Source: a virus. Taken from it: 64,000 nucleotides of DNA. Every line of letters begins with the position of its first letter. Position 1 is the stretch's first letter. Made by a program: the position numbers and the translations under genes. Where the stretch lies: IMG/VR virus record IMGVR_UViG_3300017956_000007, positions 20,466 to 84,465 of that record. One strand, given 5' to 3'. The notes beneath the pieces were generated by a model that was not told the DNA's origin, made no database searches, and saw only the letters and a program-made list of their open reading frames with translations. Below are positions 42,287 to 64,000 of this stretch, piece after piece.

Positions 42287-43028
42287 ATTTCATCCATAAA
42301 TCTTTTGCCCACCCTGTTGCTTCATGTAATTCTATTTGTGTTTCGTTTTTTCTAGCCCATGCTTTATGAGATGTGTTGAATAGGCATATTTTATATTTCT
42401 CACGGTATTCTTTTGGTGATAAATCATCAGGAAATCTAGCTCCAATATTATAATTGTAAATAATACCTTTATCCCAAAGATTTATTAAATTTTTTCTGTA
42501 GAACTGATAAAAAACAAATTTATCCAAAGACGGATACATAAAAAACGCTTTTTCTTCATGTTTGACTAAAAATTCATATAAATTGTACCCAACATCATCT
42601 TGCCACGCCACAAATGAAGAATTTAAAGGTGTAGTCATAAAGGAATAATTTTTAATATGAGACATTGGATCTCTCCAATAATTCATAATAAATCTAGGCT
42701 TATCATGTTCCATATCAATTAAATTTGTGATATCACTTTGAATTAAAATATCCAAATCAAACCATGCTTTTTTGCCAGCAACATTTTTAAAATCATAAAA
42801 AAAACACATTTTTTCAGAAGTAAAAATTCTTTTTCTGGTATGTCTTAAAAATCTTGTAGGTAAAGGTAAAATTTTAATATCAGGGTCTAAAAATTCTGAA
42901 TTATCAGTTAAACAATGAAAATTAAAATTTTTTTTATAATTTATTTTTAAAGAATTAAATAATCTATTAACATATTCTGGACCATATTTTAAGCCCCATT
43001 TTAAACAATAAAAATTAGTCATTTCCAT
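42273..43028 (-). CDS. Small GT-A-like protein
   Basis: CLKWG.KYGPEYVNRL..F.F.CLTD..K...F..FDLDILI..I..LNSS...W..ICLFN. Confidence 0.75.
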   Translation of the reverse strand: MEMTNFYCLKWGLKYGPEYVNRLFNSLKINYKKNFNFHCLTDNSEFLDPDIKILPLPTRFLRHTRKRIFTSEKMCFFYDFKNVAGKKAWFDLDILIQSDITNLIDMEHDKPRFIMNYWRDPMSHIKNYSFMTTPLNSSFVAWQDDVGYNLYEFLVKHEEKAFFMYPSLDKFVFYQFYRKNLINLWDKGIIYNYNIGARFPDDLSPKEYREKYKICLFNTSHKAWARKNETQIELHEATGWAKDLWMKYEKA

Positions 43029-44053
43029 TGATCTCCATAAGCATCAAACCCATTTCCACATTTTTGTGCGCATATTTCTGCTTTCCCTTCTTTACAAGAA
43101 GATAAACTCCATGATTTTTCAATTTTTTTAAAAAAATCTCCGTCAATTATTTTTCTCAACGGAACATTTTTCGCATTAATTTTTTCCAAATCTTCAATAA
43201 AATTCCATATTTGATCTTCGCCTATTTTCTGATATGTTTTATACAATCTACCCGCAGTCCAACAACAAGGAAAAATTAAACCTTCAGCGGATATATAAAT
43301 TTCTTTATTTAAAATTGATTTACAAGATATTACAGTATTGTCTAAATAATTTTGAAAACTGCCAAATTTTGTTATCAGATCATCATAAGTATTAACACTT
43401 TTATTTTGATAATTTTGATTCGATGGAGGTTTAATATAATTTCCTTTATTCGTTTCTTTTTCTGATATTTTATTTTTTGTTTGTACCCATCTACCACTTT
43501 TTTTCTTTATAAACTGAAGACCAAATAGTTTAGCCATTCTCTCAGCATCATCGACCTGATGTTCATTGTGTTCAAAAATTAAAAAAACCCATAAACCTTT
43601 ACCTCCTGCACTCGTAAATGCGTCCATTGAATTTTCAATTCTATCCCAATCGACATTTACTCTATACAAGTGGTTCGTATCCTCTAATCCATCTACTGAA
43701 AATGTGACCTTTCCCCTATTACCGAAAATTTTCGCCAATTCTCTCCACCATTTATCGTTTCTTGCTCCTCCATTTGTTGTCATGTGTAAATATATTTTAG
43801 AATTCTCTTGACGCAAATAATCATAAATTTTCAATGTGTCTTTTGCAATGATCGGATCACCATGATTTCCGCACATTATTAAACTGTTCAATTGGTGAAC
43901 AAAATCTGAATCGACTATTTTTTTAAATGTCGTTATATCTAAATCAGCATTTTTCAAATGTTTATTATTTGTTCTGTCACACATTGGACATTCTGCTTGA
44001 CATTTTTGTGTTGGTTCTAAATGTATGTGTGTTATTTCATTTGATTTGTACAT
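43019..44053 (-). CDS. Radical SAM protein with C-terminal SPASM/twitch motif (group C)
   Basis: HLEPTQKCQAECPMC (CxxxCxxC); CGNHGDP; TNG; FSVDG; W.FLIFEHNEHQ; C-terminal C..PCCW..CAQKC. Confidence 0.92.
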   Translation of the reverse strand: MYKSNEITHIHLEPTQKCQAECPMCDRTNNKHLKNADLDITTFKKIVDSDFVHQLNSLIMCGNHGDPIIAKDTLKIYDYLRQENSKIYLHMTTNGGARNDKWWRELAKIFGNRGKVTFSVDGLEDTNHLYRVNVDWDRIENSMDAFTSAGGKGLWVFLIFEHNEHQVDDAERMAKLFGLQFIKKKSGRWVQTKNKISEKETNKGNYIKPPSNQNYQNKSVNTYDDLITKFGSFQNYLDNTVISCKSILNKEIYISAEGLIFPCCWTAGRLYKTYQKIGEDQIWNFIEDLEKINAKNVPLRKIIDGDFFKKIEKSWSLSSCKEGKAEICAQKCGNGFDAYGDQWK

Positions 44054-44253
44054 ATATCATCATCAGGAAATGAATTATATTTTGTTATATACCAAAATAT
44101 AACATTTTTATAAAATTGAACACTATCATGTTCAGATTGAAATTGTTTTATAAAACTACTAGTTGCGTTGTGCGCAGACAAAATTTTTGAGGAATATATT
44201 TGCAATTCTCGTAATGTATAATCATCTAAAAGCTTTATCAAAAAATCACTCAT
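44032..44253 (-). CDS. Small hypothetical protein
   Basis: 73 aa, overlaps both neighbours in the same orientation. Confidence 0.6.
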   Translation of the reverse strand: MSDFLIKLLDDYTLRELQIYSSKILSAHNATSSFIKQFQSEHDSVQFYKNVIFWYITKYNSFPDDDICTNQMK

Positions 44254-45079
44254 ATATAAAATCTTTTTTATTATTATTTGATTTAATTATTAAAATATCA
44301 TTATAATCTTTAAAATTTGTTTTAAATTTTGGTAAATTTTTATAATCATTATTTAATATGTTTAAAAGATACTCGAACATTTTTTCATGATTTTCAGGAG
44401 ATAGATGATTTTTTCTTAAATCCAAGTAAAGTTTTTCTCTATAATAATATTCTTGTTCTTTAAGAAGTTCTCGATAACTTAAATCAAACAAATTTACAGG
44501 AGAGAAAAAAAAATTATTATAATTCAATTTAAAAAAATTATCAAATTCTCCACTTAAATCATTAGCAAATACTATAATTTTTATATCATATAATAAAGAT
44601 ATAGAATATAAAAAAGACAAATTTTTTGAATTTTCATACAATAATTGTTTTGATATAGTCATGAAAAAAAATTCTATTTCTTTTTTATACATTTCATAAT
44701 ATTTTAATAATTTTTTTTCTTTATCATTACCTTCTGTCCAATCTGATACTATATATGTTCTATTATTGATAAAATCATATTTTATTCTAGTGGAAACATC
44801 AAACGTTAAAGATGGATGTGTAATGAATTGAATTCTGTCAAAATGTGAAAGGTGAAACAATACAATGTCACCTGCATAAATTTTATTTTCATTGAATAAA
44901 TGGTCATTAAACAAATTAAAAGAATAATGGGGTCCTGTACCAGATTGAGCATAGTTAAAAAAACAATATTTGTTTTTAAAATGGTTCTTCAATTTAACTA
45001 ACCAGGAGTATTTTACGTATTCTTCATCATGTTCACATTCTTCAAAATAACTATCACCATATATGAAAAAATTTTTCAT
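44246..45079 (-). CDS. SGNH/GDSL-like hydrolase or acyltransferase-like protein
   Basis: FIYGDSY (block I)..NYAQSGTG (block II)..NHLSPENH; AAGGTGA Shine-Dalgarno. Confidence 0.65.
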   Translation of the reverse strand: MKNFFIYGDSYFEECEHDEEYVKYSWLVKLKNHFKNKYCFFNYAQSGTGPHYSFNLFNDHLFNENKIYAGDIVLFHLSHFDRIQFITHPSLTFDVSTRIKYDFINNRTYIVSDWTEGNDKEKKLLKYYEMYKKEIEFFFMTISKQLLYENSKNLSFLYSISLLYDIKIIVFANDLSGEFDNFFKLNYNNFFFSPVNLFDLSYRELLKEQEYYYREKLYLDLRKNHLSPENHEKMFEYLLNILNNDYKNLPKFKTNFKDYNDILIIKSNNNKKDFIYE

Positions 45080-45089
45080 TCATCACCTT

Positions 45090-45118
45090 ATATTATCATT
45101 ATTTTTTCAAATTGTCAA
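45090..45118 (-). promoter_or_regulatory. Internal sigma70-type promoter with extended -10
   Basis: On the - strand: TTGACA (45118-45113), 17 nt spacer ending TGA, TAATAT (45095-45090), then the Shine-Dalgarno and ATG of the SGNH-like gene. Confidence 0.6.
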
Positions 45119-46412
45119 GTATTTCCTTTAAATCTTTACTGACATAATCACTATAGTTTTGATTCCTTGCTTGATCTAAAATTGTTATCTCATCATATAA
45201 CTTAAATTTATTTTTTTCATAAAAGTTATTCTCAATAGAGTTGTCTAAAATTTGAAAAATATTTTCACTCTCATAAAAAAAATGATTTTTTAACCCCATT
45301 TCTTTCTGTCTGATTTTTTCGAAAAAATTATAGAATTTTAAAAATTTTGATTTGATTTTTATTAAATGATTTACGGGTAAATTTCTAATGTGAATCCCTC
45401 TCTCAATTGGTCTGACTGAGGAGAAGAAAATATTACATTTTATCTTCAAATGAAACATCATAATAATCCAATCCATAAAATCAATAATGTTATCTAAATT
45501 TAATGCTGATATTACAAAATTACAATTAAAAGATTTAATATTGTTTGATTTTTTAAACCAATTGATTAAATTTTTTTCTAAAACATTAAAATTAGAATAA
45601 TGTCTAATATAATTATATGTATTATCTACTCCATCAATGCTAAACGTATGCATTTGACTTTTAAATTTATTCAATATTTGTATCATAGAATCATCTATTA
45701 AAATACCATTAGTATGAAAAACTAATCTTGTATTTTTTGAATTTCCGTCTTTGATAAATTTTTGTAACAATTTTATGACGTTATTGTCGTAAAAAGGTTC
45801 ACCTCCTGATATCTTTAAAACTTTTATTTTGTCTGTATTATCAAATATCCATTTAAACAATAAATTATTAGTAGTATTTTTTGGTAATGATTTTGAATTC
45901 ATAGAAAAATCAGAGGCATAATTAAATTTTTCCATTAAATTTAATTTTTTTATTTCATCAAGATCTTTATATAATTGATGTGATGATCCAATATTGCACA
46001 TTCGACAGGCCAGATTACACTTATTTGACAATGAAATATCAACCTCTCTCAATTCTGTACTAAAAGGCTCATCAAAATCCCATCCAGTATACATACGATG
46101 TGAAATAAAACCATTTTCCTCTAATTTCCAACAAGTTTGACATCTAGGATCTTTTATATTATTTAAAATATTATTTCTAAATTCCACAAATTTTTGATGA
46201 TTGAAAATTTGATCAGGATCTAAATTTTGCAACTCAGATTTTTCTAATATTGTATTTTGATTGGTATCGTGCATCATACAGCAAGGTGCGACCTTTGATA
46301 ATTTATCATTTTCATATAATTTAAAAACTAATGCGTAAAATGGATAATAACAAAAAGTGTTGGTTTTATCGGGGACTCTAAAAATTTTTTGAAATTCTCT
46401 CGGCTCATGCAT
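45099..46412 (-). CDS. Radical SAM protein with N-terminal twitch-like domain (group A)
   Basis: FCYYPF..PCC..CQTCW, then CNLACRMC, SGGEPF, FHTNG, FSIDG..YIR. Confidence 0.92.
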   Translation of the reverse strand: MHEPREFQKIFRVPDKTNTFCYYPFYALVFKLYENDKLSKVAPCCMMHDTNQNTILEKSELQNLDPDQIFNHQKFVEFRNNILNNIKDPRCQTCWKLEENGFISHRMYTGWDFDEPFSTELREVDISLSNKCNLACRMCNIGSSHQLYKDLDEIKKLNLMEKFNYASDFSMNSKSLPKNTTNNLLFKWIFDNTDKIKVLKISGGEPFYDNNVIKLLQKFIKDGNSKNTRLVFHTNGILIDDSMIQILNKFKSQMHTFSIDGVDNTYNYIRHYSNFNVLEKNLINWFKKSNNIKSFNCNFVISALNLDNIIDFMDWIIMMFHLKIKCNIFFSSVRPIERGIHIRNLPVNHLIKIKSKFLKFYNFFEKIRQKEMGLKNHFFYESENIFQILDNSIENNFYEKNKFKLYDEITILDQARNQNYSDYVSKDLKEILDNLKK

Positions 46413-47469: not shown

Positions 47470-47474
47470 AAATA
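47468..47474 (+). promoter_or_regulatory. T4-type late promoter candidate (ATAAATA) for the MTase-TctA-TctC unit
   Basis: cATAAATAcactcATG: 5 nt before the ATG at 47480, the same spacing as before gp2. Confidence 0.65.
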
Positions 47475-47479
47475 CACTC

Positions 47480-47989
47480 ATGAACAATGATTTGAAATTT
47501 TACTTTGATAAAGTATGGAAACCAAACTATAATAAATTTATTTATAGTGGTTGGAATTTAATAAAAAAAATAAATGATGATGAAACCATTTTAGACGTAG
47601 GTTGCGGTTTTAATTTATTTAAACCATATTTTAAAGATAGGTTATATGGTATTGATATAGTAAATAAATTTGCCGATGAAATAGTTTCTATTGAAGATTT
47701 TGTAACCAATAAAACCTGGAATGTAGGATTTTGTTTAGGTAGTTTAAATTTTGGAACAAATGATCAAGTGTATGAACAGGTAAAAAAAGTATGTAAATTA
47801 ACAGAAAGAATTTACTTCAGACAAAATCCTGGTGTAGCTGATCATAAATATGAAGGTGTCGAAAAAATAAAATTCTTCCCTTGGACCATTAACTTAAATT
47901 ATGAATGGGCTGAAAAAAATAATTTTACAGTAAAGGAAATAAAATGGGATAAAGGTAATAGAATTTATTCCGAGTGGATTAAAAATTAA
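47480..47989 (+). CDS. Class I SAM-dependent methyltransferase
   Basis: ILDVGCG.N..YGID..FCLGSLNFG..RQNPG. Confidence 0.85.
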   Translation: MNNDLKFYFDKVWKPNYNKFIYSGWNLIKKINDDETILDVGCGFNLFKPYFKDRLYGIDIVNKFADEIVSIEDFVTNKTWNVGFCLGSLNFGTNDQVYEQVKKVCKLTERIYFRQNPGVADHKYEGVEKIKFFPWTINLNYEWAEKNNFTVKEIKWDKGNRIYSEWIKN

Positions 47990-48009
47990 CAGAAGATAAG
48001 AATTTAATT

Positions 48010-49440
48010 ATGCTTTTTATTATATTATTGGGTACATTATATGGTTTTATATTTGGTTTAATTCCAGTAGCAGGAGCGACAACTGCCCTCATAACAGTTT
48101 TTTCTTTTTATCAATATTTTCAATACGAACCCTACCTTTTAGTTGCATTCACAACCTCTATTGTGGTTTCATCTTCTATAGGTGATAGTTTTTCAAGTAT
48201 TATGTTGAACATACCTGGTGCCGGAGGAAGTGCAGCAACAATGATTGATGGTTTTCCTATGGCACAAAGAAATGAAGGAGCAAGAGCATTAGGTGCAGCA
48301 ATATGTGTTTCAACAGTTAACGGTTTACTCTGGGGCATCATCGTTTTTCTTTTTTTACCACATTATACTGGATTTGTGTTAAATTTTGGTATACCTGAAA
48401 TGTTTGTATTTCTTATTCTAGCATTTTTTTCTGTCATTTTTATAAATAACCAACATTATTTTCGTGGATTTTTAGCACTCATCATTGGCATATTTTTAGG
48501 AATGATTGGTCAAAATCCAATCACAGGAGATGAAAGATTTACTCTTGATATTCAATACCTAGGTGATGGTATTCAACTTGTCCCTATCATGGCAGGAATT
48601 TTAGCATTTCCTGAATTGCTTCATGCATATCTAAATGATAAAAATAAATCATCAGATATTTTTGACATCAAAAAACAAATAGTACAAGGTTTTAAAGACA
48701 GCTGGATATACAAATGGGATGGACTTCGAGGAGGATTTATCGGTGCTGTTATCGGTGCTATACCTGGAATTGGAGGAAATGTTGCCGATTGGTTGGCATA
48801 TGGACAAACGATTGCCTTGAATAAAAAAGAAACATTTGGAAACGGAAATGTAAGAGGCGTAGTAGGGTGTGAAGGAGCAAATAATGCACAAAAAGCGACC
48901 AGTTATATTCCTACAATACTGTTTGGAATTCCGGGTGCACCATTTGAAATTATCATAATTAGTTTGTTTATGCTTGTAGGTTTAGAACTAGGTTCGCCTG
49001 ATCTATTACTTGACATAACTTTTTTTAACTATATGACAGAAAGTTATATATTGAGTTTAATTTTAACATTTTTTATTGCTGTCATTTTTGTAAGATATGC
49101 AGTAAACATTGTTAAAATACCTTTCAAATATTTCTTCTGGTTCATTATGTTGTTATTGATTTGGGTGTCTATACAATATACAAAAGGTATTGAAGATTAT
49201 CTAATATTCGGTTTCTTTTGTATATTCGGTCTAATACTAAAACGATTTCATTTCAATCGTGCCGCACTTATACTCGGATTTATTTTAGCGGAAAGATTAG
49301 AAAGTTTGTATATTCAATTCAATGCTCTATATTCTTATGATATTTTATTACAAAGACCAATTAGTTTAGGAATCTTATCTCTGACATTTATATTGGTAGG
49401 TATTGGTTTAACAACAAAAACAAGGATTAAATACTCATGA
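48010..49440 (+). CDS. tctA: Tripartite tricarboxylate transporter permease TctA
   Basis: Highly hydrophobic; LNIPG...AATM.DGFPMA..G....ALG; G..IGAIPGIGG; GV...EGANNA..IPT.LFGIPG; LILGFILA..LE. Confidence 0.93.
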   Translation: MLFIILLGTLYGFIFGLIPVAGATTALITVFSFYQYFQYEPYLLVAFTTSIVVSSSIGDSFSSIMLNIPGAGGSAATMIDGFPMAQRNEGARALGAAICVSTVNGLLWGIIVFLFLPHYTGFVLNFGIPEMFVFLILAFFSVIFINNQHYFRGFLALIIGIFLGMIGQNPITGDERFTLDIQYLGDGIQLVPIMAGILAFPELLHAYLNDKNKSSDIFDIKKQIVQGFKDSWIYKWDGLRGGFIGAVIGAIPGIGGNVADWLAYGQTIALNKKETFGNGNVRGVVGCEGANNAQKATSYIPTILFGIPGAPFEIIIISLFMLVGLELGSPDLLLDITFFNYMTESYILSLILTFFIAVIFVRYAVNIVKIPFKYFFWFIMLLLIWVSIQYTKGIEDYLIFGFFCIFGLILKRFHFNRAALILGFILAERLESLYIQFNALYSYDILLQRPISLGILSLTFILVGIGLTTKTRIKYS

Positions 49441-50456
49441 AAAAAATTATTTTATTTATAACATTAATGTTGATTGCAACTGCAACTTTTGCCGATTACA
49501 CATTTATTGTACCTCAAAAACCAGGAGGAGGTACTGATCTTTGGGCAAGAACAATTGCACAAGAATTGGAAAAGAAATTGGGTGAAAAAATTAAAATTAA
49601 TAACTTACCTGGAATTAATGATGTTCCAGGGTTTAATAAATTTCACAATGAATTGCAGTATGATGATAAAAATGTCATGGTTGCGCATGGAGGTAATGCG
49701 GAAAGTTTTTTAGTTCAAAATGTTGATTATGATTATTTTGATTATGAACCCATAGCACTGCAAAATCTTACCATTATGGTAGGTAAAAGAAATGATCATA
49801 ATCATCTTGAAAATGTAAAATTTGCCGCAGGTTCTGGAATGAACCCAGATGCAATGGCAATTACAATGTTAATATGTGGACCGAAAAATTCATTATTAGA
49901 ATATAAACAGTGCTTTGATCAAAAATTTATTTATGTAAAAGGAATGTCGGGCGGAGAACGAAGATTAGCATATATGCGAGGAGAATTAAACGTAACTAGA
50001 GAAAATCCTCTTGCATATAAAAAACATGCAGAAAAAATTAAAGAAAATGTCAACTGGTTTTCTCATGGTGTAATGAATATAGATACGCTAGAAATTATCA
50101 ATGATGCAAATTTTCCAAATTTATCTTTTGTTGAGGTATATAAAAATTTATGGAAAGAAGAACCGAAAGGAGATTTTTATCATGCCTATATATTATCTAA
50201 AAGTTATAGAGATGTATTGCAAAAAAGTTTATGGGTAAGAAAAGATAATTCAAATGTGAATAAATTAATCACAGCTTTCAATGATATGATAAATGACGAT
50301 GAGGCAATGAATAGAATATATGAAAAAACAGGTAAATACGATTTCATTGTCGGTAAAAAAATTGAACCACTTTTAGTTTCTTTACAAACATTGAAAGATG
50401 AAAATAATTTGATGAATTTGAAATGGATTATAAAAAATATGTTACACGTTAATTAA
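49437..50456 (+). CDS. tctC: TctC/Bug-like periplasmic substrate-binding protein
   Basis: Signal peptide MKKIILFITLMLIATATFA; IVP.KPGGGTDLWAR.IA..LEK.LG; G..GGE..LA..RGE; ATGA overlap with tctA. Confidence 0.8.
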   Translation: MKKIILFITLMLIATATFADYTFIVPQKPGGGTDLWARTIAQELEKKLGEKIKINNLPGINDVPGFNKFHNELQYDDKNVMVAHGGNAESFLVQNVDYDYFDYEPIALQNLTIMVGKRNDHNHLENVKFAAGSGMNPDAMAITMLICGPKNSLLEYKQCFDQKFIYVKGMSGGERRLAYMRGELNVTRENPLAYKKHAEKIKENVNWFSHGVMNIDTLEIINDANFPNLSFVEVYKNLWKEEPKGDFYHAYILSKSYRDVLQKSLWVRKDNSNVNKLITAFNDMINDDEAMNRIYEKTGKYDFIVGKKIEPLLVSLQTLKDENNLMNLKWIIKNMLHVN

Positions 50457-51635
50457 TTCAATAATTCTAGGATCAAGATAGTTTATGTAAGATTGATTAC
50501 GTACAATATCTAAACAATAAATTTCATCTTTTAATAACTTTAAATTTTCTTGATTATTTTTTATAGAATTGTCTATTAATGATATAACTTTTTTATTTTT
50601 AGTTTTATCTTTAGCAATATTTAATACAGATACTGGTAGTCTTCTGATGTTTATACCTCTATTGAAAGGATAAACATCAGAAAAATTAATATTATAGTTT
50701 ATATTTTTACTTTTAAAAATAATTTTTACCCACTCCTCAAATTCAGATATATTAAAAATATTTAAACTACTTAAAACTAAATTTACATCAATAATATCAA
50801 TGTTTTTTGATTTTGATAAAAAATTTAACACACTTTTTTCTAAAGATAAAAAATTATGAAATCTTATATATTCATAAACAAGATCAACGCCATCGATACT
50901 GAACGTATGTGAAACGGATTTGAATTGGTTGTTTATTTCAACAATTTCATCTGTAAACAAAGTTGCATTGGTATGAAATTGTAAAATTGTATTTTTTGAC
51001 GTTCCATCTTCAATAAATTTTTTCAGTAAAAATAAAACTTTTTTATCATAAAAAGGTTCTCCTCCAGAACAACTTAAAATAGAAATTTTATCAGTATTAT
51101 TTAACATCCATTCGAATTGTTTTGAATTAATATTTTGATTATTAACTACTTTTTTACTGTAATCACCAAAAATAGATTTTTGGTATTTTTCCTTCAAGTT
51201 TAACTCAGACAACTTTTTTTCATCTATCATTAAAGAATGCGAACAGTCAGGAAAACACATTCTACATCTTAAATTGCATAAATTGCTGGTTGTAAAATCA
51301 ATTTGAATAAGTTTTTTTTCTTCAGAGTCATGTTTATTAAAAGAATCTAATCTAAATGATCTCAATCCACCTTTTTCCATGTCCCAGCACACTTTACAGT
51401 TATGATTTTTAATACCATTAATTAAATCATATCTTAATTTATCAAAACTATCACTATTAAAAATTTCATCAGGATTTTTTTCTGATATATTCGGTATCAT
51501 CAAATTTTTACCAGTTGCAGCAGACATTTGACAACAAGGATTACTAACTCTAAGATTACCGTAAGAATCCCATTTTTTTAAAGTAATTTGTTTGAAAGGA
51601 AAATGGCAATAGGTATTTTCTCTATCTGGTTTCAT
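50442..51635 (-). CDS. Radical SAM protein with N-terminal twitch-like domain (group A)
   Basis: YCHFPF..PCC..CKVCW; CNLRCRMC; SGGEPFYD; FHTN; HTFSIDGVD..YIR; close paralogue of 45099-46412. Confidence 0.92.
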   Translation of the reverse strand: MKPDRENTYCHFPFKQITLKKWDSYGNLRVSNPCCQMSAATGKNLMIPNISEKNPDEIFNSDSFDKLRYDLINGIKNHNCKVCWDMEKGGLRSFRLDSFNKHDSEEKKLIQIDFTTSNLCNLRCRMCFPDCSHSLMIDEKKLSELNLKEKYQKSIFGDYSKKVVNNQNINSKQFEWMLNNTDKISILSCSGGEPFYDKKVLFLLKKFIEDGTSKNTILQFHTNATLFTDEIVEINNQFKSVSHTFSIDGVDLVYEYIRFHNFLSLEKSVLNFLSKSKNIDIIDVNLVLSSLNIFNISEFEEWVKIIFKSKNINYNINFSDVYPFNRGINIRRLPVSVLNIAKDKTKNKKVISLIDNSIKNNQENLKLLKDEIYCLDIVRNQSYINYLDPRIIELINV

Positions 51636-53868: not shown

Positions 53869-54961
53869 CTTTTATAATAATTTTAGAAATTTCAGGAATT
53901 TCAGTTACAGTGTTTAAAAAATTATAATACTTCAAAAAATTTAAATTCACTTCATTATTCTGTTTAGCATCACCTAAAAAATTTTCAACTAAGTTATTAA
54001 AAAAACCATTTTTTACATAATCTAAAATAATTTTTTTTGTTGATTTCGGTAAATATTTAATATTCAAATATTCCGGTGAGTCCAAAAAATCATACGACAA
54101 AAAACAATCTGTATCAAAAAATTTTCTCAACCATTTATATGTATCATTGATAGACAATATGTTAAAATTATGTATGACCAAATGCGGTATTACTTTTAAT
54201 TTTGGAACATTTTCTGAAATATTTAACCACCTTTTAAAATTTTTTTCGAATTTACTGAATTTAATACCATATCTGACAAATTCTCCGACATCATCAATAC
54301 CATCGATACTTATGTTAATCTTTATTTTTTTAAATTTAAGTATAGAATCTAAAAATTCTTTTTTTGGAAAAAAAGTTGCATTCGTTACTAAAAATAAAGT
54401 TATATTATTTGCAGACAGTTTTTCAAAAAAATTAACATACTCAGGATACATAAATGGTTCGCCACCTAAAATTTTTAATTCTTTCAATTCTGAAAAATCA
54501 TAATCTAAAAAATTATCATCTATTGAAACTGATGGTTTTTTATGAATTTTTCTAGGAATTAAATTATTTAAAATTTTATCAGTTTTTTCCCAAGCACTGC
54601 TATAATAACCATTGCATGTAACACACCTTAAATTACATTTATTTCCCAATGCTAATTCTAATTCTTTAATTTTAGGTTCAACTATATTTTTTTCAGAATA
54701 ATATCTTTTATTAAAACGCAAACGATAACTTTCTTTACCTATTGATTCATCAATATAACATTTGTTGCATTCTAATATTTTTTCTCCGTCTAACATTTTT
54801 TGACGCAAATTTTTATTTTCATCACTATCAAAAATATCAGTAATAGATTTATATTCTTTATCATATATTGTAGGATAAAACATACAACATGGCCGCACTC
54901 TACTCTGGGCATCTATAGCTAAATGTGTAAAGGGTGCCATGCAAAAATACTTACCAACCAT
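53843..54961 (-). CDS. Radical SAM protein with N-terminal twitch-like domain (group A)
   Basis: FCMAPF..RPCC..CNKC; CNLRCVTC; LGGEPF; TNAT; SIDG..VR. Confidence 0.92.
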   Translation of the reverse strand: MVGKYFCMAPFTHLAIDAQSRVRPCCMFYPTIYDKEYKSITDIFDSDENKNLRQKMLDGEKILECNKCYIDESIGKESYRLRFNKRYYSEKNIVEPKIKELELALGNKCNLRCVTCNGYYSSAWEKTDKILNNLIPRKIHKKPSVSIDDNFLDYDFSELKELKILGGEPFMYPEYVNFFEKLSANNITLFLVTNATFFPKKEFLDSILKFKKIKINISIDGIDDVGEFVRYGIKFSKFEKNFKRWLNISENVPKLKVIPHLVIHNFNILSINDTYKWLRKFFDTDCFLSYDFLDSPEYLNIKYLPKSTKKIILDYVKNGFFNNLVENFLGDAKQNNEVNLNFLKYYNFLNTVTEIPEISKIIIKDVKKNVEK

Positions 54962-56159
54962 GTATTTCCTTTAAATTTTGATAAATATACAAACATTCTT
55001 CCGGAGGATATTTTGTGTGTTCTAACAAATAATCAGTATATTTAACAAATTTAAGACAATATTCTTCATCATATGAATCCATTGTTAATAAATGGTGAGT
55101 AAAATCTTCATGCCCCTTATTGAAAAAAATCATTTTTTCCAAAATCATATCCTTTAACATAAACGGTAATTTAGATGGACATATCGTATTAGTGTTTGAA
55201 TTATTATAAGATAATATGTACTGATATTCATTCAATCCTAAATTTTCAATAAATTCTAAAGTATTGTAAATATTAAATATATTATAATTATGAACACAAA
55301 TATTGATAATCAATCCGGATCTGTTCATATTTTCATAAAAAAAATCTTCTTTATCTTTCAATAACTCAATCCATCTATTTAAATTTTTACGAATTATTCT
55401 CATCTTCATACCATATCTACACCACTCACCAACTTGATCAACGCCATCTAAACTAAACATAATTAAAACTTTTTTTAATTTTTTTATTAATTTTTCACCC
55501 GATTCATTTATAAATCTTGATCCGTTAGTAATCATGCCAAAACCAAAATCATCATCTACCGTTTTTAATATTTTTTCAAAAAATTCATTGTCAAATTTTT
55601 TTTGAATTGTCGGTTCTCCTCCAGATAATATTAAATGCTTTAAGGTTGGTAAATATTTTTCAATTTCAAATGACGTAGGTTTTTTCAATGAATTTGTAAA
55701 AGATCTATTTCCCAAATTATTTAATCTGAATCCTGTAGGTCCAATGGAATCGCCAATTCTATTTACCCATGCTGAACTTGCCCTTGGTGTGCATGTTATG
55801 CACATATAGTTACAAGTATTGTCAATCGATAATTCTAAATCCGTAATATATGCCTCAGGAATTATATTATTTTTTATGTAATAATCCGCATTATACTCAT
55901 TATTATAGTGCATTCTTTGAGATCTAAAACGTTTATGACCAGGAGATTTCTCATGCATATGACATATTTTACAACCTTCCAATTTTTCACCATTTATCAT
56001 TTGTTGTCTATGTAAATCCATCTCCTCTCCATAAAATGCTTCTCTTATATCAACGTGAGATTTTTTCAAATCGGTATAATGACAACAAGTTCTGAGTCTA
56101 CCATTTGGATTTTCAAGCATTTTTCTGAAAGGTGCCATGCAAAAATATTTCTCATTCAT
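54951..56159 (-). CDS. Radical SAM protein with N-terminal twitch-like domain (group A)
   Basis: FCMAPF..RTCC..CKIC; CNYMCITC; SGGEPT; TNG; SLDG..R. Confidence 0.92.
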   Translation of the reverse strand: MNEKYFCMAPFRKMLENPNGRLRTCCHYTDLKKSHVDIREAFYGEEMDLHRQQMINGEKLEGCKICHMHEKSPGHKRFRSQRMHYNNEYNADYYIKNNIIPEAYITDLELSIDNTCNYMCITCTPRASSAWVNRIGDSIGPTGFRLNNLGNRSFTNSLKKPTSFEIEKYLPTLKHLILSGGEPTIQKKFDNEFFEKILKTVDDDFGFGMITNGSRFINESGEKLIKKLKKVLIMFSLDGVDQVGEWCRYGMKMRIIRKNLNRWIELLKDKEDFFYENMNRSGLIINICVHNYNIFNIYNTLEFIENLGLNEYQYILSYNNSNTNTICPSKLPFMLKDMILEKMIFFNKGHEDFTHHLLTMDSYDEEYCLKFVKYTDYLLEHTKYPPEECLYIYQNLKEIHGW

Positions 56160-58437: not shown

Positions 58438-59510
58438 TTGTGACTACATTCTACAAAACAGTTTTGTTTATTTTTCCAAGAGGAAATAACTTTATACCAA
58501 TGGTGACTATTAATAACGTCTTCGATTGTGTTTTTATTTAAATCAAAACATTTCTTATCTTTGACCCATAATGAATCTTTAAACTCAATTTCACGATTAG
58601 AAAAATTACTTTTTTTAATTTTATAAGGATGACTGACCCAACTGCAAGGGTACATTATACCTTCAGCATCAATGTATTTACCATAATCTCCTTTAAAGCA
58701 TTTAGGAGTTATCAAATCAGTCTCATATAATTTAGCCTCATCATCACATCTTTTCAAATATTCATTATACTTTTTAGTTTTTTCTCGCCTTAAATCAATG
58801 TACTTAATTTTATCACTCATTAACACATATTGATTTCTAAAATGAACCGGATATTTTCCTATAAACTCCTCGGACGGCTGCAAAGGATCATAACCGAGAA
58901 ATTGATCAATATATTTTTCATGTTTTTTTCCAAAATTAGTTGAATTTACAATTCTAAATTGATCAACATTTAAAGATTGTGCTTTATCTTTTATATTATT
59001 CAAATGATTTTGATTGAAACTAAAAACAATGGTTGACCATTTTACAAGTGCTTCTGATTTTACAACTTCTTTAATACCAGTTTCAATGGTATCCCAGTCA
59101 GAATTAACTCTATATTTTTGATTCGATTCTTGATCCCATCCATCTATTGAAAAAACCACAGTATCGTATATATTTAAATGAGAACTTAATTCATTCCACC
59201 ACTCTGCTTTTTTATAGCTGCCATTCGTGATTATCTTAATTTCTAAATCTTTTTTAATATTTTTTAAATATTCAATTATTCGAATTATGTCTTTGCAATA
59301 TATAGGGTCCCCTTGTCCGCCACAAAAATCTATATATTTAACATAATCATTAATGAATTTTTCAGTAAAATTTTTTTTAAAAAAATTTAAATTCAACTCA
59401 GTTATTTTATAACTACCGGGATATTCTGTTCTAGGACATCTGGGACATTTTAGTGCGCATTTTGAAGATAATTCAATATGCCAATGTGCAAATAAATTAT
59501 TATAATTCAT
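58425..59510 (-). CDS. Radical SAM protein with C-terminal SPASM/twitch motif (group C)
   Basis: HIELSSKCALKCPRC; CGGQGDP; TNG; FSIDG..YRVN..W; IVF.FN..H; PCSW..CSHKC. Confidence 0.92.
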   Translation of the reverse strand: MNYNNLFAHWHIELSSKCALKCPRCPRTEYPGSYKITELNLNFFKKNFTEKFINDYVKYIDFCGGQGDPIYCKDIIRIIEYLKNIKKDLEIKIITNGSYKKAEWWNELSSHLNIYDTVVFSIDGWDQESNQKYRVNSDWDTIETGIKEVVKSEALVKWSTIVFSFNQNHLNNIKDKAQSLNVDQFRIVNSTNFGKKHEKYIDQFLGYDPLQPSEEFIGKYPVHFRNQYVLMSDKIKYIDLRREKTKKYNEYLKRCDDEAKLYETDLITPKCFKGDYGKYIDAEGIMYPCSWVSHPYKIKKSNFSNREIEFKDSLWVKDKKCFDLNKNTIEDVINSHHWYKVISSWKNKQNCFVECSHKCLK

Positions 59511-60057
59511 TTCTTGTTTCTATTACCATTTCACCTATCAAAAAATCGACAGGTGTGTTCAATAAATATGTTATTAGATTGTAATATTCGATTTCCGTAA
59601 TTCCTCTTCCCTTCCATTCTTTTTTATTTCTATTGATTTCCGTGTCTAACAATCCTAATTTTAAATTTGTAACTTTGAAATTTATTTTTTTACTTTGAAA
59701 TTGCTTAAAAGACATTTTGCAAAGTTCATCCAATGCCGTTTTTATAGATAAATTTGAAGTTAAATTATCATAATTTTTAAAATGTGTATTTATTGAGCCC
59801 GTATTGATTATATAACCATCTTTATTAAATTTTTTCCAACACTTTATAATATCATATAATAGAGTATATTGTGAGTGATCTCCAGACCATGCGTGATTAA
59901 TAAAAACATCATAATCAATACTTTTTCTGATGATTTCATGTCTATCTTTTTCTGATGAGATATCAAAACCTGTTGATCTTGAATAATCTATTGCTGAAAA
60001 TTTTTTAACAATAATATTTCCTATTCCATAAGATCCTCCAACGATAGCAACTCTCAT
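59500..60057 (-). CDS. Short-chain dehydrogenase/reductase-like (Rossmann) protein
   Basis: VAIVGGSYGIG..SRS.GFDI..DVFINHA..IINTGS..K.AL..G..DT. Confidence 0.8.
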   Translation of the reverse strand: MRVAIVGGSYGIGNIIVKKFSAIDYSRSTGFDISSEKDRHEIIRKSIDYDVFINHAWSGDHSQYTLLYDIIKCWKKFNKDGYIINTGSINTHFKNYDNLTSNLSIKTALDELCKMSFKQFQSKKINFKVTNLKLGLLDTEINRNKKEWKGRGITEIEYYNLITYLLNTPVDFLIGEMVIETRNEL

Positions 60058-60058
60058 A

Positions 60059-61192
60059 TCAATCCTTAAATAATTGCATAGTGGTTTGATCTATTTCATA
60101 ATTACTATTTTTTTGTGAAACAATTTCATAATCTAAATATTTTGTATGATTTTTAAATAAAGAATCAATATCGTGATCATTTTTTGCTTTTGTTATACAT
60201 AAACCACATCCACAAAATGTTTTAGGACATGTTATCATTGGAATTTTTTTATCGGAATATAAAAATTTTGATAAATCATCAATAATTTTATCAAAATTAG
60301 AAATATTTCCTAATGGGGCAACTTCTCCGTTCAAATTAACCGCACAAGTCTGATGAGTCCAAACCTTATCTAATTCTTGATTCAAAAATAAAAAATACCA
60401 ATTAATCATGCACTTCCATCCTTGAAAATTAGTAGATGGTAAAAAATATGCATCATGGTCATTAACTTTAAAACATCTACCTCCACAACAAGGTCTACCC
60501 AATCCTTTTTGACTATCTCCTTTTTTAGATGTTTCTTGACCTTTATTGTTCCAAAATTTTCTGAACCATTTCATCTGATCTCTACTGTAAACATGTGTAT
60601 AACCGTAAGATATAGACAATTCATCATTGATATCATCTCCTATAATTCTTGGTATGTAATTAACTCCCTCTTTTTCCAACAAATCACACAAATCCACACA
60701 CTCATCAAAAAAGTTTTTATGAAACATGACATTGACTTTATAAGTTTTTTTCAATTCTATTATATTTTCTATTACTACTTTTTTTTGTTTTTCCGTTGAT
60801 TCGCAATGATATGAAATTGTTCCAGTTGTTGTATATTTTTTAACTTTTTCTAAATTTTTTTTACCAAACCATCCATTAGTTGTTAATCCTCTAGAATAAT
60901 TTGAATAATTATCAGAGATATATTGCATAAAATCAAAAAACGCAGGATTTAATGTAGGTTCACCTCCAGTAAATGATAATTTCTTAATGGAAGGTTTTTT
61001 TCTAAAATCATCATACAAAGTTGAGTAGTCATTTACATATTTCATAGTTCGACAAAGTTCTTCAAAATCTGCCATGGGAGACCATTTATTGTTTCTGTGA
61101 GGAGGACAATATGAACATGCATATGAACATCTTCTACCTAAATCCCATATAATTTGAAATCTGTTAGATATATCTTCTATTTTATCAAACAT
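60059..61192 (-). CDS. Radical SAM protein with Cys-rich C-terminus (group D)
   Basis: WDLGRRCSYACSYC; FTGGEPT; TTNG; SYH.E; RPCCGGRC, F.GW.C, CPKTFCGCGLC. ATG at 61192 preferred over the track start at 61249. Confidence 0.9.
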   Translation of the reverse strand: MFDKIEDISNRFQIIWDLGRRCSYACSYCPPHRNNKWSPMADFEELCRTMKYVNDYSTLYDDFRKKPSIKKLSFTGGEPTLNPAFFDFMQYISDNYSNYSRGLTTNGWFGKKNLEKVKKYTTTGTISYHCESTEKQKKVVIENIIELKKTYKVNVMFHKNFFDECVDLCDLLEKEGVNYIPRIIGDDINDELSISYGYTHVYSRDQMKWFRKFWNNKGQETSKKGDSQKGLGRPCCGGRCFKVNDHDAYFLPSTNFQGWKCMINWYFLFLNQELDKVWTHQTCAVNLNGEVAPLGNISNFDKIIDDLSKFLYSDKKIPMITCPKTFCGCGLCITKAKNDHDIDSLFKNHTKYLDYEIVSQKNSNYEIDQTTMQLFKD

Positions 61193-62198
61193 AGGATTCC
61201 ATTTTTCCAGTTCTAGAAATGTCCTGCGAACAACAATGCGCACCTCCATCCCAAAAATATCTATGTCTATGATTCCAGGTGATCACATCAATCTGGTGTT
61301 TTTCTATATTTTTTATATTTTCAATGTCATTACCAGTAGTTATTATTGTATTTTCATCAACAGAAAGACAGTTAACATCAAACCAAGTTTCTTTCGAATA
61401 GCCTACCCAATCGCTAAGATATTTCATCACATAATCAGTATAAAATCTCTTTTTTCTAGTTTCTTTAAATTCTTTAGGAAATTTAGAGTTGTCTTTGATA
61501 ATAATTTTATCCCAATTTTTCAATTCTTCAGGAATAAATTTTTCCCTCCAGGTCATTAATAATCCTGGACGCAAAAGTGCTATTTTTCCGTCAATATGAC
61601 CTCCAGCAGAAACTTCAATGAATTTATATTCGGTTAATAAAGATTTCATCCACTCTAAACCTTTCTCCGTTCCTTTACCATTTTTAGGATCTTTATCAGC
61701 TGATTGAGTGTGTATAATACAATCTCCGCATTTTATAAAATTTGCAGTTTCCCACAATATCATATTTTTATATTTGTCATATCTTTGTTGAATCTTAATT
61801 TTATTGGAGTGGTCTTCAATTATATCATAATCTTCAGTTTTGTCAATATCTGGTTTCCACATTTTAAATAATTCATAATCATCTAAACAGTCTCTAACAA
61901 CATCCGAATAAAGTGTATGCTCTTCAAATCTTGAATGTATTGCGCCAAAAGTTTGAAACATTTTATTACCATAAAATCCAAATATATCTCTTGGCATTAT
62001 AGGATGATGCAAATCTATTGAAAATTTAGGCTGTATTGGACGTAAAACTTTAACATTTTGTTTCACTAAAATATTTTCCAATTCATTAAGATCTTCATTT
62101 GTCTCATCAATAATTTTATCTAACCCTTTAATATCGCAAGATTTGTAAGAAATACCTACCAAACACTTTTCTAATTTTGTAAATTCATCATGTATCAT
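61185..62198 (-). CDS. Amidinotransferase (glycine / inosamine-phosphate amidinotransferase family)
   Basis: DEF..L..C.VG..T.EDL..L..V.VLRP..PRD..GHIDG.I.LLRPGL..FDVN.LS..RHR.FWDGG.HC...D..R; AAGGAAG Shine-Dalgarno before the ATG at 62198. Confidence 0.88.
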   Translation of the reverse strand: MIHDEFTKLEKCLVGISYKSCDIKGLDKIIDETNEDLNELENILVKQNVKVLRPIQPKFSIDLHHPIMPRDIFGFYGNKMFQTFGAIHSRFEEHTLYSDVVRDCLDDYELFKMWKPDIDKTEDYDIIEDHSNKIKIQQRYDKYKNMILWETANFIKCGDCIIHTQSADKDPKNGKGTEKGLEWMKSLLTEYKFIEVSAGGHIDGKIALLRPGLLMTWREKFIPEELKNWDKIIIKDNSKFPKEFKETRKKRFYTDYVMKYLSDWVGYSKETWFDVNCLSVDENTIITTGNDIENIKNIEKHQIDVITWNHRHRYFWDGGAHCCSQDISRTGKMESYV

Positions 62199-62727
62199 AT
62201 AATACTTCCTTATTACTCCAATTATCATCCATAAAAGATAAAATTATTGTGGTTCTAGTACCATTAATAATTTGTTTTTCAACACCATGCGGTATTTGAC
62301 TTAAATCGTAAGTATGCAAACCGACAGTATTGAACTCTACCGCACGATTTATTTTAAAATCAACTGTAAATTTTTCATTCGAATAAAATGTAGTTCCAGG
62401 CCCATCACCGTCCAAATATATTAATATAGTTTTTTTTCTTTCTGGATGATCATTATGAGGTTTTAACCAAAAACCATTTTTATCTTTACATATTTCTATT
62501 CTGACATTATTTCTTTTTTCATAGTTTGATAAAATTTTTTCAGCTAAAACTTTATGCTCATCGATAGAATTTTTAGTTATAAAATATCTGTTCACAAGTT
62601 CAGATCTTTTCCCTAAAAAATTTTTATAATCATTGTCTATTTTCAAATTCCTTGATATCTTCTGTGCCAATTTAAGAGTTGATGGTTCTAAAAAATCTTC
62701 TATTATTTTTATATTTAACTTTTCCAT
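62188..62727 (-). CDS. 2OG-Fe(II) oxygenase
   Basis: RIEICKD..GFWL.PHND..ILIYL..GT.FY..HG...R (HxD...H...R). Confidence 0.8.
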   Translation of the reverse strand: MEKLNIKIIEDFLEPSTLKLAQKISRNLKIDNDYKNFLGKRSELVNRYFITKNSIDEHKVLAEKILSNYEKRNNVRIEICKDKNGFWLKPHNDHPERKKTILIYLDGDGPGTTFYSNEKFTVDFKINRAVEFNTVGLHTYDLSQIPHGVEKQIINGTRTTIILSFMDDNWSNKEVLYDT

Positions 62728-63500
62728 GACATAATTTTTTCGTGTAATTCTTTAATAATTTTATATTCTTTAATAGTTATTCTCATTTTATTTCCATAAG
62801 ATTTTACTAAAATCTTATGTTCTTTTAATTTCTCTGAAAAATCATAATCACACATAACATAATTAGAATATCCGTTATAGTGATAAAAATCAAACTGTAA
62901 TAAAAAACTCAATGATTTTTTAAATTGATTCATTGAGTTTTTTAACTCATCATTTTCAACCATTTTGCTATATGCCACACTTAATGAATATTCATTAGAT
63001 TCATATCCTCCCCTATACTCCTGAATATGTTCTGTCAAATGACCTGTCATATATCCTATTCTCAATCCTGCCAGACCGTATGCTTTAGAAAAAGATCTCA
63101 GTATAGTGACATTCGGCAACAAATAATCCCAATTATGATTATGATAATGTTGAAAAACATCATCTATGACAACATAATCATAATTAAAATCCACTTCTGT
63201 TTTTGGATTTACAATAAATTGTATAGAAGGTCCTACAGGTTGACAATAGATTTTTTCAAAAACAGGATATAATGAGAAATCCGAATCATATGAAATTTTT
63301 GAAGGCTTTAATACCTCCATTATATTTTTAATTCCTCCCGAAACACCTTCAGTAAAAAATAAATTATCATATTTTAAATAATCTTTAAATTTTGTATAAT
63401 AGTATTGTAAATTAGGATAATTTGACCAATAACCTAGCCCTTCATTTCTATCTAATCTAATATAGTCGTCGGAATATTCTTCTTTTCTAAATCTATTCAT
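62715..63500 (-). CDS. PLP-dependent aminotransferase class I/II (compact HisC-like)
   Basis: IRLDRNE..T.G..VNP..VIDD.F..LRSFSKAYGLAGLRIGY (PLP lysine)..N...RITI. Confidence 0.88.
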   Translation of the reverse strand: MNRFRKEEYSDDYIRLDRNEGLGYWSNYPNLQYYYTKFKDYLKYDNLFFTEGVSGGIKNIMEVLKPSKISYDSDFSLYPVFEKIYCQPVGPSIQFIVNPKTEVDFNYDYVVIDDVFQHYHNHNWDYLLPNVTILRSFSKAYGLAGLRIGYMTGHLTEHIQEYRGGYESNEYSLSVAYSKMVENDELKNSMNQFKKSLSFLLQFDFYHYNGYSNYVMCDYDFSEKLKEHKILVKSYGNKMRITIKEYKIIKELHEKIMSWKS

Positions 63501-64000
63501 AATATTTTTTAAAAAAATTAAAATGTTCTAAACCTTCTTGTTTATTCGTGTAGGTATTAATTTTACCATTTACATTACATTTATTACAAGGAGAAATATT
63601 TTTTCTATTATTAACTATCAACTCTTTTCTCATATATTCATAAGATTTATACCATAAATTTTCTAAACTATCATTTTTTAAATTACCCATAACTTTTTTT
63701 TCTTTCCAATCATGACAACAAAATCTAATATCTAAATTCCAATCTATTTTCATCCTATAAAAAGGTACATAACAGGTTTTGTTTTCTAATTTTTTTTCCT
63801 CAAACCATCCTCCACAATTATTAAACATTATTGAATTTATATATTGTTTTCTAATATCGACCGCATAATTTTTAGTTTTACTCTTAATATATTCATATCT
63901 TTCGTCACCATCATAAACTGATATTCTAATCTGATCAAAATATTTAAAAAATGAAAAATCTTTTTTGCCTATATAATCACCATTAGTTGTCATTTTTATT
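63493..64000 (-). CDS. Radical SAM/SPASM protein, 5' end beyond the window
   Basis: Frame open to the right edge; TTNGD..IRISVY..; C-terminal CYVPF..IDW....CCHDW..GNL...L..LW..R..L..R....PC.KC. The CxxxCxxC motif would lie outside the window. Confidence 0.8.
   Translation of the reverse strand, partial: IKMTTNGDYIGKKDFSFFKYFDQIRISVYDGDERYEYIKSKTKNYAVDIRKQYINSIMFNNCGGWFEEKKLENKTCYVPFYRMKIDWNLDIRFCCHDWKEKKVMGNLKNDSLENLWYKSYEYMRKELIVNNRKNISPCNKCNVNGKINTYTNKQEGLEHFNFFKKYYE

Follow-up and report, generated by a model that had tools for sequence, protein, structure and literature searches.

What would a T4-like phage make with a dozen radical S-adenosylmethionine (SAM) enzymes that are encoded side by side? 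The question is raised by a stretch of 64,000 nt, hereafter the window, which covers bases 20466-84465 of an 84.5-kb IMG/VR virus contig (IMGVR_UViG_3300017956_000007) and in which radical SAM genes are packed into positions 43019-64000. We give an even chance to the reading in which this array supplies the radical SAM core of a conserved pathway that tailors a sugar-type substrate in the cytoplasm. This substrate could be a nucleotide-sugar, an aminocyclitol-like unit, or a prebuilt glycan. The class of substrate, the individual reactions, and the final target, either a glycan on a virion protein or one on the host surface, are what we infer from the genes. The reading is proposed because six of the proteins are NF033640 members, all 12 complete radical SAM proteins are intact and possess the Cys residues of an auxiliary cluster, and the order of orthologues is conserved across phages. 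It is also proposed because the nearest remote structures include enzymes that act on small molecules, nucleotides, or lipids (MoaA, viperin, BlsE, and Tes).

The 12 complete open reading frames (ORFs), each with one CxxxCxxC motif, were identified on the minus strand of 43019-64000 through the ORF list and a motif scan. They are given here with their paralogue group, followed by an ORF that is cut by the contig end.

43019..44053, minus strand: radical SAM protein of group C (RS-C1), N-terminal CxxxCxxC and C-terminal twitch-like Cys domain
45099..46412, minus strand: N-terminal-twitch radical SAM protein of group A (RS-A2), NF033640 217 bits
46405..47487, minus strand: radical SAM protein of group D (RS-D3), Cys-rich C-terminus, from CxxxCxxC, PF04055, and BLASTP
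50442..51635, minus strand: N-terminal-twitch radical SAM protein of group A (RS-A4), NF033640 195.5 bits
51632..52921, minus strand: N-terminal-twitch radical SAM protein of group B (RS-B5), NF033640 212 bits
52918..53868, minus strand: radical SAM protein of group C (RS-C6), from CxxxCxxC, PF04055, and BLASTP
53843..54961, minus strand: N-terminal-twitch radical SAM protein of group A (RS-A7), NF033640 258 bits, Pfam SPASM match at residues 7-69
54951..56159, minus strand: N-terminal-twitch radical SAM protein of group A (RS-A8), NF033640 174.6 bits
56156..57457, minus strand: N-terminal-twitch radical SAM protein of group B (RS-B9), NF033640 193.5 bits
57457..58437, minus strand: radical SAM protein of group C (RS-C10), PF04055 and PF13186, the latter at 26.4 bits
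58425..59510, minus strand: radical SAM protein of group C (RS-C11), seven C-terminal Cys, from the motif scan and PF04055
60059..61249, minus strand: radical SAM protein of group D (RS-D12), Cys-rich C-terminus, from the motif scan and PF04055
63493..64000, minus strand: C-terminal part of a probable thirteenth radical SAM protein, cut by the contig end, twitch/SPASM-like Cys domain

PF04055 was matched by all 12 complete ORFs, and 11 of these lie above the Pfam gathering score of 29.5 bits. RS-A4 reaches 22.9 bits, which is below this cut-off, but it is above the cut-off of NF033640. According to the ORF coordinates, almost all junctions are overlaps of 1-65 bases between adjacent genes. The preliminary description of this DNA had reported 12 complete and intact minus-strand CxxxCxxC ORFs with overlapping starts and stops, and the ORF list, the motif scan, and PF04055 bear this out. 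It had also sorted them into paralogue groups, and all-against-all BLASTP reproduces group A (45099, 50442, 53843, and 54951), group B (51632 and 56156), group C (43019, 52918, 57457, and 58425), and group D (46405 and 60059). RS-B9 and RS-B5 are 47% identical by BLASTP. Orthologues in related loci, which are numbered L001 onward, are closer: those of RS-C1 in L018, L012, and L078 share 65-75% identity, those of RS-D3 in L018, L024, and L078 share ~80%, and those of RS-D12 share 63-65%. The truncated ORF at 63493 had been proposed as a thirteenth enzyme. Its C-terminal Cys domain is there to be seen and its homologues of 251-262 aa in L078 (262 aa) and L010 carry CxxxCxxC, but its own radical SAM core lies off the contig. 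Because the 262-aa homologue in L078 has the motif, this ORF likely encodes a thirteenth radical SAM protein.

The six ORFs of groups A and B score above the curated cut-off of NCBIfam NF033640 (N_Twi_rSAM), with 174.6-258.3 against 170 bits. Those of groups C and D, like the truncated ORF, do not reach it. Four N-terminal residues, C7, C25, C65, and C68, are invariant ahead of CxxxCxxC in the six group A and B paralogues, and C25, C65, and C68 are invariant across 26 homologues as well. A C-terminal SPASM/twitch domain had been assigned to group C. The C-terminal Cys domain is present. However, only four to six C-terminal Cys are conserved across the family, so it resembles a twitch with a single cluster more than a full 7-Cys SPASM. 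PF13186 (SPASM) passes its cut-off in group C only with RS-C10, and RS-C6 reaches 18.8 bits. At E<=1e-30, a NF033640-type profile retrieved 4,514 representatives of 50%-identity clusters, among which are many double fusions of ~800 aa. Double N-terminal-twitch fusions of ~800-880 aa are common (L079:13465-16095 is one example), which suggests that radical SAM proteins may work together in pairs.

None of the radical SAM proteins reaches the NCBIfam equivalog cut-offs of MoaA, QueE, NrdG, NirJ/AhbD, or viperin, the best scores being 20-60 against 130-650 bits. With scores so far under the curated cut-offs, a housekeeping identity as MoaA, QueE, NrdG, NirJ, or viperin is rejected, and the earlier view that these are not housekeeping genes stands. 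In profile searches against solved structures, only remote matches to the core were found: MoaA, viperin, the cytosylglucuronate decarboxylase BlsE, Tes, SkfB, 5wgg, and 5v1q. The substrates of MoaA, viperin, BlsE, and Tes are small molecules, nucleotides, or lipids, and SkfB modifies a peptide. The nearest solved relatives of group D are MoaA and viperin-like enzymes.

The array belongs to an uncultured aquatic T4-like phage. The window has a GC content of ~28%, and the 84.5-kb record from which it comes is 34% complete by the CheckV estimate. Its left half encodes T4-type gp6, gp25, gp5, gp53, gp19, a T4 baseplate protein, gp32, and gp59, together with ClpP. After gp32, gp59, and ClpP come two giant glycosyltransferase (GT) fusions and then the radical SAM island. 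A host-derived misassembly, raised in the preliminary description as a point to be checked, is excluded: near-identical contigs from three other DNA runs of different studies cover all 30 bins of 43001-63000. Because they span this region and both edges of an inserted TctA transporter block, the array is not a misassembly. Near-identical DNA was found in 20 runs from 18 studies among the matches listed. The runs carry the labels salt marsh, estuary, marine, and 'freshwater', and four of the 20 may be the contig's source samples and are not independent support. Seven short contigs from a salt-marsh metatranscriptome (run X20) show 0-1 differences to array genes within 46763-62388. They match RS-D3, RS-A4, RS-A8, the RS-B9/RS-C10 junction, and the overlap of the 2-oxoglutarate (2OG) oxygenase and amidinotransferase genes. 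This one metatranscriptome is a weak hint that the array may be expressed, as DNA carry-over is possible.

Similar arrays are widespread in viral DNA. A profile of 26 homologues gave 276 viral-contig matches in IMG/VR, and 76 loci were fetched; the alignment of the six paralogues was too divergent for this search, and single proteins found no loci. When 50,697 records of cultured phages were searched with group B by tblastn, nothing matched. Up to 16 CxxxCxxC ORFs are present in 21 kb (L018), and many loci have 9-13. The common order of orthologues is amidinotransferase, a 476-aa group A protein, a PP-loop protein, RS-D12, RS-C10, RS-C6, RS-B5, RS-A7, RS-D3, RS-A2, and RS-C1, followed by unk251, unk200, unk209, and a GT8-like gene. 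The 476-aa group A protein and its PP-loop neighbour (SGGADS, QueC-like Cys cluster) are the most conserved pair of the arrays in relatives, between the amidinotransferase and RS-D12, and are lacking in the window. In the tree of groups A and B, clades contain one member per phage, and the RS-B5 and RS-A2 clades have 100% support. Because of these clades and the common order, the paralogues are judged to be old and functionally distinct; the array varies by gain and loss of cassettes. It had been suggested that the array may diversify receptor binding. The conserved order argues instead for a fixed multi-step pathway with optional cassettes rather than a diversity generator.

The selection on distinct paralogues that had been suggested is consistent with these clades and with a check of dN/dS. 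Values to orthologues are 0.14-0.45, which are upper bounds only since dS is saturated. Population variants in the radical SAM genes, taken from the three other DNA runs, comprise 15 synonymous and 5 non-synonymous changes. The paralogues are under purifying selection.

Two near-syntenic copies of the array with ~28-31% GC, L077 (PBYV01000081.1) and L078 (PAAV01000055.1), are filed under Acidimicrobiaceae and Chloroflexota metagenome-assembled genomes (MAGs). These are evidently phage contigs and look to have been mis-binned. Among schizoT4-like phages, Vibrio phages K566 (L115, OZ196521.1, 161-167 kb) and KVP40 (143570-144382) possess one to five distant N-terminal-twitch radical SAM homologues. 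Those of K566 form a small cluster near NAMPT and a PagP-like gene.

The genes that accompany the array can indicate what it acts on.

28455..35634, minus strand: multi-domain glycosyltransferase/methyltransferase fusions GT2+GT1+GT9 and GT1+FkbM, from domain matches
40065-40514, minus strand: 2OG oxygenase, cluster tail
40501-41064, minus strand: GT8-like protein, cluster tail
41058-41687, minus strand: methyltransferase-like protein unk209, from motifs only
41684-42286, minus strand: unk200, cluster tail
42273-43028, minus strand: GT-A-like protein unk251, from motifs only
44032..44253, minus strand: conserved helical protein of 73 aa, from homologues and an AlphaFold2 (AF2) model
44246..45079, minus strand: SGNH/GDSL-type esterase or acyltransferase, from SGNH residues, hhalign, and Foldseek
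47480..50456, plus strand: inserted block of a 169-aa ORF, a TctA transporter (48010-49440, E 8e-92), and a 339-aa ORF
59500..60057, minus strand: short Rossmann protein of 185 aa like a short-chain dehydrogenase/reductase (SDR), from domain matches and homologues of equal length
61185..62228, minus strand: StrB1-type (pentein) amidinotransferase, from its family profile against PDB 1bwd
62188..62727, minus strand: weak 2OG-Fe(II) oxygenase-like protein, E 0.0028, below cut-off
62715..63500, minus strand: HisC/CobD-like class I/II pyridoxal 5'-phosphate (PLP) enzyme, short form of 261 aa, hisC model E 2.5e-18 over the C-terminal two thirds only

The family profile of the amidinotransferase matches StrB1 (1bwd) with E 6.8e-68 over 2-329 of 330 positions, and HsvA, SxtG, and AGAT score lower. 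The His-Cys pair of the GGxHC motif is kept, H330 being invariant and C331 nearly invariant. The short SDR has homologues of 184-223 aa in L018 and twice in L116 and represents a conserved family rather than a gene fragment. The tail from 40065 to 43028 follows RS-C1 in the same order in L007, L010, L011, L014, L031, and L077. No solved relative was found with the profiles of unk251 and unk209. Apart from TctA, no protein of the phage island has membrane spans, and because of this the chemistry of the array is cytoplasmic. Other phage arrays contain genes for a DegT aminotransferase, NDP-sugar epimerase/dehydratase, UDP-glucose dehydrogenase, GT7, 2OG/TauD oxygenases, nitroreductases, AMP-binding enzymes, and a flavin halogenase-like protein.

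The SGNH identity of the 44246-45079 protein was overlooked in the preliminary description. It has no Pfam annotation, and its sequence-profile match to SGNH is weak. However, all of 13 sequences keep S9, G46/G48, N188, and H224 of the SGNH blocks, and hhalign links the family at 95-98% to families c24 and c33 of relatives' loci. The top Foldseek matches of its AF2 model are all GDSL/TesA/PatB/acetyl-esterases (probability 0.99-1.0, E 2.6e-3, TM 0.5-0.58). Several SGNH paralogues occur per array in relatives, usually flanked by radical SAM genes. In population variants the SGNH-like gene has 6 non-synonymous and 1 synonymous change, against 5 and 15 in the radical SAM genes; on this small sample it may be under relaxed or diversifying selection.

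Also overlooked was the 73-aa ORF, which fills the sole gap in the array. Homologues with 59-68% identity occur in at least seven distinct loci (L001, L002, L014-L018, L031, and L078), and L018 has the protein as an N-terminal fusion to a 319-aa ORF. A search of the L007, L010, and L011 arrays did not find it. The AF2 model is a helical bundle (pLDDT 73) with an invariant Ser44 at a helix start, and the protein has no Cys or Gly-rich core. Foldseek and VIA-align gave no clear fold match, only generic helical bundles. The motif around this Ser and its place on the helix recall an acyl carrier protein (ACP), but an ACP-like carrier is not supported, as no ACP was among these matches. Rather than a substrate, the protein seems to be an accessory domain.

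That the TctA block is an insertion had likewise been passed over. The block is placed outside the conserved array. It is absent at this position in L001, L014, L018, and L078 and both of its junctions are bridged by independent contigs from other runs, and because of this it is read as an insertion. A second TctA, 25% identical, lies beside another phage's array (L047:13529-14863). The presence of TctA near arrays could be chance or a link to substrate import. PHROGs and the ESM Atlas gave nothing for the two ORFs that flank TctA or for the proteins designated A1, B1, A2, and B2. In L031:10463-12254, homologues of unk232 and A2 are arranged alike beside the tail of the cluster, so the A-type proteins may belong with the island.

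The cellular relatives of the array are mostly Bdellovibrionota. Five bacterial genomes were searched, four from Bdellovibrionota and one from Bacteroidota. About 4 to 20 NF033640 genes above the cut-off were found per genome, with only 1 in the Bacteroidota genome. A Bdellovibrionales MAG (G004) and two more genomes of predatory Bdellovibrionota (G001 and G003) have ~9-20 each, in several clusters. The phage members of NF033640 score 174-258 bits and those of Bdellovibrionota 300-440 bits; because their scores are well below, the phage proteins are regarded as divergent members. Proteins that share 28-59% identity with those of the phage, from groups A, C, and D as well as the short SDR and methyltransferase-like families, are encoded on a 52%-GC Bdellovibrionales contig. 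In Bdellovibrionales L116, one homologue is 59% identical to a phage orthologue of RS-D3 and another is 40% identical to RS-C11. The accessory genes of the bacterial clusters encode GT2 (three genes), GT1, a carbamoyltransferase, a GDSL protein, and ABC-2 and ABC exporters. An Asp/Asn hydroxylase and AsnB are also found, beside polytopic membrane proteins.

A sugar-type substrate is favoured because StrB1, whose substrate is an aminocyclitol phosphate, is the closest match of the amidinotransferase. It is further favoured because SGNH paralogues are interleaved with the radical SAM genes and GT fusions and a GT8-like gene flank the array. The same holds for the DegT, NDP-sugar epimerase/dehydratase, UDP-glucose dehydrogenase, and GT7 genes in relatives' arrays, and for the Bdellovibrionota clusters that combine orthologues with GT2, GT1, carbamoyltransferase, GDSL, and exporter genes. 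The preliminary description had proposed a biosynthetic or tailoring cluster with a link to sugars or glycans, and the neighbourhood comparison agrees with this in the window, in relatives, and in bacteria. A virion protein as the target, as had also been proposed, is possible, with enzymes that are all predicted to be soluble.

In such a pathway, each radical SAM paralogue would carry out a separate conserved step. By analogy to twitch radical SAM enzymes of sugars and cyclitols, hydrogen could be abstracted from an unactivated C-H, leading to dehydrogenation, epimerisation, deoxygenation, or a change of C-C or C-methyl bonds. The substrate, if a glycan, could possibly be built by the neighbouring GTs. 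The HisC-like PLP enzyme could convert a keto group to an amine and the StrB1-like amidinotransferase could convert the amine to a guanidino group. Acyl groups could be added or removed by the SGNH proteins, while 2OG oxygenases would add hydroxyl groups and the methyltransferase-like protein methyl groups. A more specific form is held tentatively and with rather low confidence. Here an assembled surface glycan of phage or host would be edited stepwise by radicals, through site-specific epimerisation, deoxygenation, or oxidation followed by amination and amidination. If so, rare sugars would be made without dedicated nucleotide-sugar pathways, in a manner common to aquatic T4-like phages and predatory Bdellovibrionota. 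It would also give first functions to thousands of N-terminal-twitch radical SAM enzymes.

Several points weigh against a sugar pathway. No enzyme of this set has a characterised close relative, so every reaction is an inference. No gene for NDP-sugar synthesis was found within the window, and no acceptor was identified. Among the nearest solved structures are peptide-modifying enzymes (SkfB, 5wgg, and 5v1q). The amidinotransferase was not found in the five bacterial genomes that hold radical SAM clusters, some of which are incomplete; because of this, the core common to phages and bacteria is narrower than the phage set. To our knowledge, no described sugar pathway needs 12 or more radical SAM steps.

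The product could instead be a free small molecule, a guanidino-aminocyclitol or aminoglycoside-like metabolite that is released in or from the infected cell and decorates no polymer. The StrB1-like amidinotransferase, PLP aminotransferase, twitch radical SAM enzymes, and SDR do recall the logic of streptomycin and butirosin, and AMP-binding enzymes as well as a flavin halogenase-like gene are present in relatives. A similar trio in cyanophage S-SCSM2R was called 'antibiotic synthesis genes' by its authors (PMC12801897). We consider this unlikely all the same, as the window has no exporter, resistance gene, or inositol/cyclitol synthase, large GT fusions adjoin the array, and the bacterial clusters hold polysaccharide-type ABC-2 exporters and GT2 genes.

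Direct modification of a peptide or protein is quite unlikely. It would be similar to that of RiPPs, the peptides that are ribosomally synthesised and post-translationally modified, or would place cross-links or epimerised residues in a virion protein, and the 73-aa protein or A1/A2 would be the substrate. No PqqD or RiPP recognition element (RRE) leader-binding domain was found in the 12 radical SAM proteins with Pfam and NCBIfam, although a very divergent RRE could escape, and what stands at the N-terminus is an Fe-S twitch instead of a leader-binding domain. SPASM/twitch enzymes do often act on peptides, and the peptide-modifying structures above agree with this, as do NCBIfam matches to sactipeptide and ranthipeptide maturases, which are weak and all far below cut-offs. 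In a check for precursor peptides, the 73-aa protein was the only small conserved ORF in the cluster, and in L031 an A2-like gene adjoins the cluster. However, the helical bundle model of the 73-aa protein, its lack of Cys or a Gly-rich core, its fusion to an enzyme-sized ORF, and the arrays in which it was not found weigh against a precursor.

Even less probable is hypermodification of DNA, or the making of modified nucleotides, to evade defence. Radical SAM enzymes reportedly function in thymidine hypermodification, MoaA and viperin-like enzymes are the nearest to group D, and a QueC-like PP-loop protein lies inside relatives' arrays. Among window ORFs of at least 90 aa, however, Pfam identified no DpdA/TGT, hydroxymethylase, nucleotide kinase, or DNA glycosyl- or amino-acid transferase. 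Scores of the viperin and QueE models fall far short of the cut-offs, and in bacteria the context is polysaccharide-like. Unrelated auxiliary metabolic genes that aid Fe-S or anaerobic metabolism of the host during infection, as was suggested for other phages (PMC2853527 and PMC5332604), are hardly credible given the tight overlap, the co-orientation, the order conserved with tailoring enzymes, and the lack of a match to any housekeeping family.

Tailoring of a sugar-type substrate thus remains our preferred reading. The array takes up about a quarter of the 84-kb fragment, and the same conserved set is present in hundreds of viral contigs and in predatory bacteria. Radical SAM chemistry is within reach of few other enzymes. 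Once found, the product of the array would assign functions to NF033640 with its at least 4,514 clusters at 50% identity. We would also learn what it is that abundant aquatic phages make at so high a price, either a decoration of the virion or host surface or a small molecule. The distant homologues in culturable Vibrio phages KVP40 and K566 and in Campylobacter phage CP220 are possible experimental models.

Among known systems, the glycosylation of chlorovirus and mycobacteriophage virions is cytoplasmic and uses the viruses' own soluble GTs and methyltransferases. The window likewise encodes GTs and methyltransferases that are predicted to be soluble. We know of no radical SAM enzymes in the glycosylation of chloroviruses or mycobacteriophages. 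The dehydrogenase BtrN and the epimerase HygY are twitch radical SAM enzymes of aminoglycoside pathways, with one auxiliary 4Fe-4S cluster on a 4-Cys twitch motif. Such enzymes act on sugar or aminocyclitol substrates alongside aminotransferases and, in streptomycin, StrB1. The twitch of BtrN and HygY is C-terminal, whereas that of groups A and B is N-terminal, and their pathways use one or two radical SAM enzymes and not 12 or more. No BtrN-type chain was among the profile matches to solved structures. With StrB1 (PDB 1bwd), an inosamine-phosphate amidinotransferase, the window protein has full-length homology and shares the catalytic His-Cys. The six window proteins match NF033640 over its full length, with the N-terminal 4-Cys motif and then CxxxCxxC; the family itself is uncharacterised.

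Phages rich in radical SAM genes were in print before. The T4-like Campylobacter phages CP220 and CPt10 have 11-12 radical SAM genes and a module of five with an amidinotransferase (PMC2853527). The window amidinotransferase matches that module at 24% identity and cultured-phage homologues overall at 24-36%. A marine T4-like genome, TARA_ERS488813_N000010, has 12 radical SAM genes (PMC5332604). Pelagimyophages have radical SAM cassettes with GTs in a hypervariable island, and their host recognition island lies between VrlC and gp14 with tail-fibre genes (PMC7029224). Neither VrlC nor gp14 is in the window, where the island follows gp32, gp59, and ClpP instead. In these reports of 2010, 2017, and 2020 the genes were counted, with no analysis of pathway or family (PMC2853527, PMC5332604, and PMC7029224). 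No functional study of such phage arrays was found in the literature searched. 'Undescribed', as the array had been called, is therefore an overstatement, and the array is another member of a noticed, unexplained kind of phage gene set.

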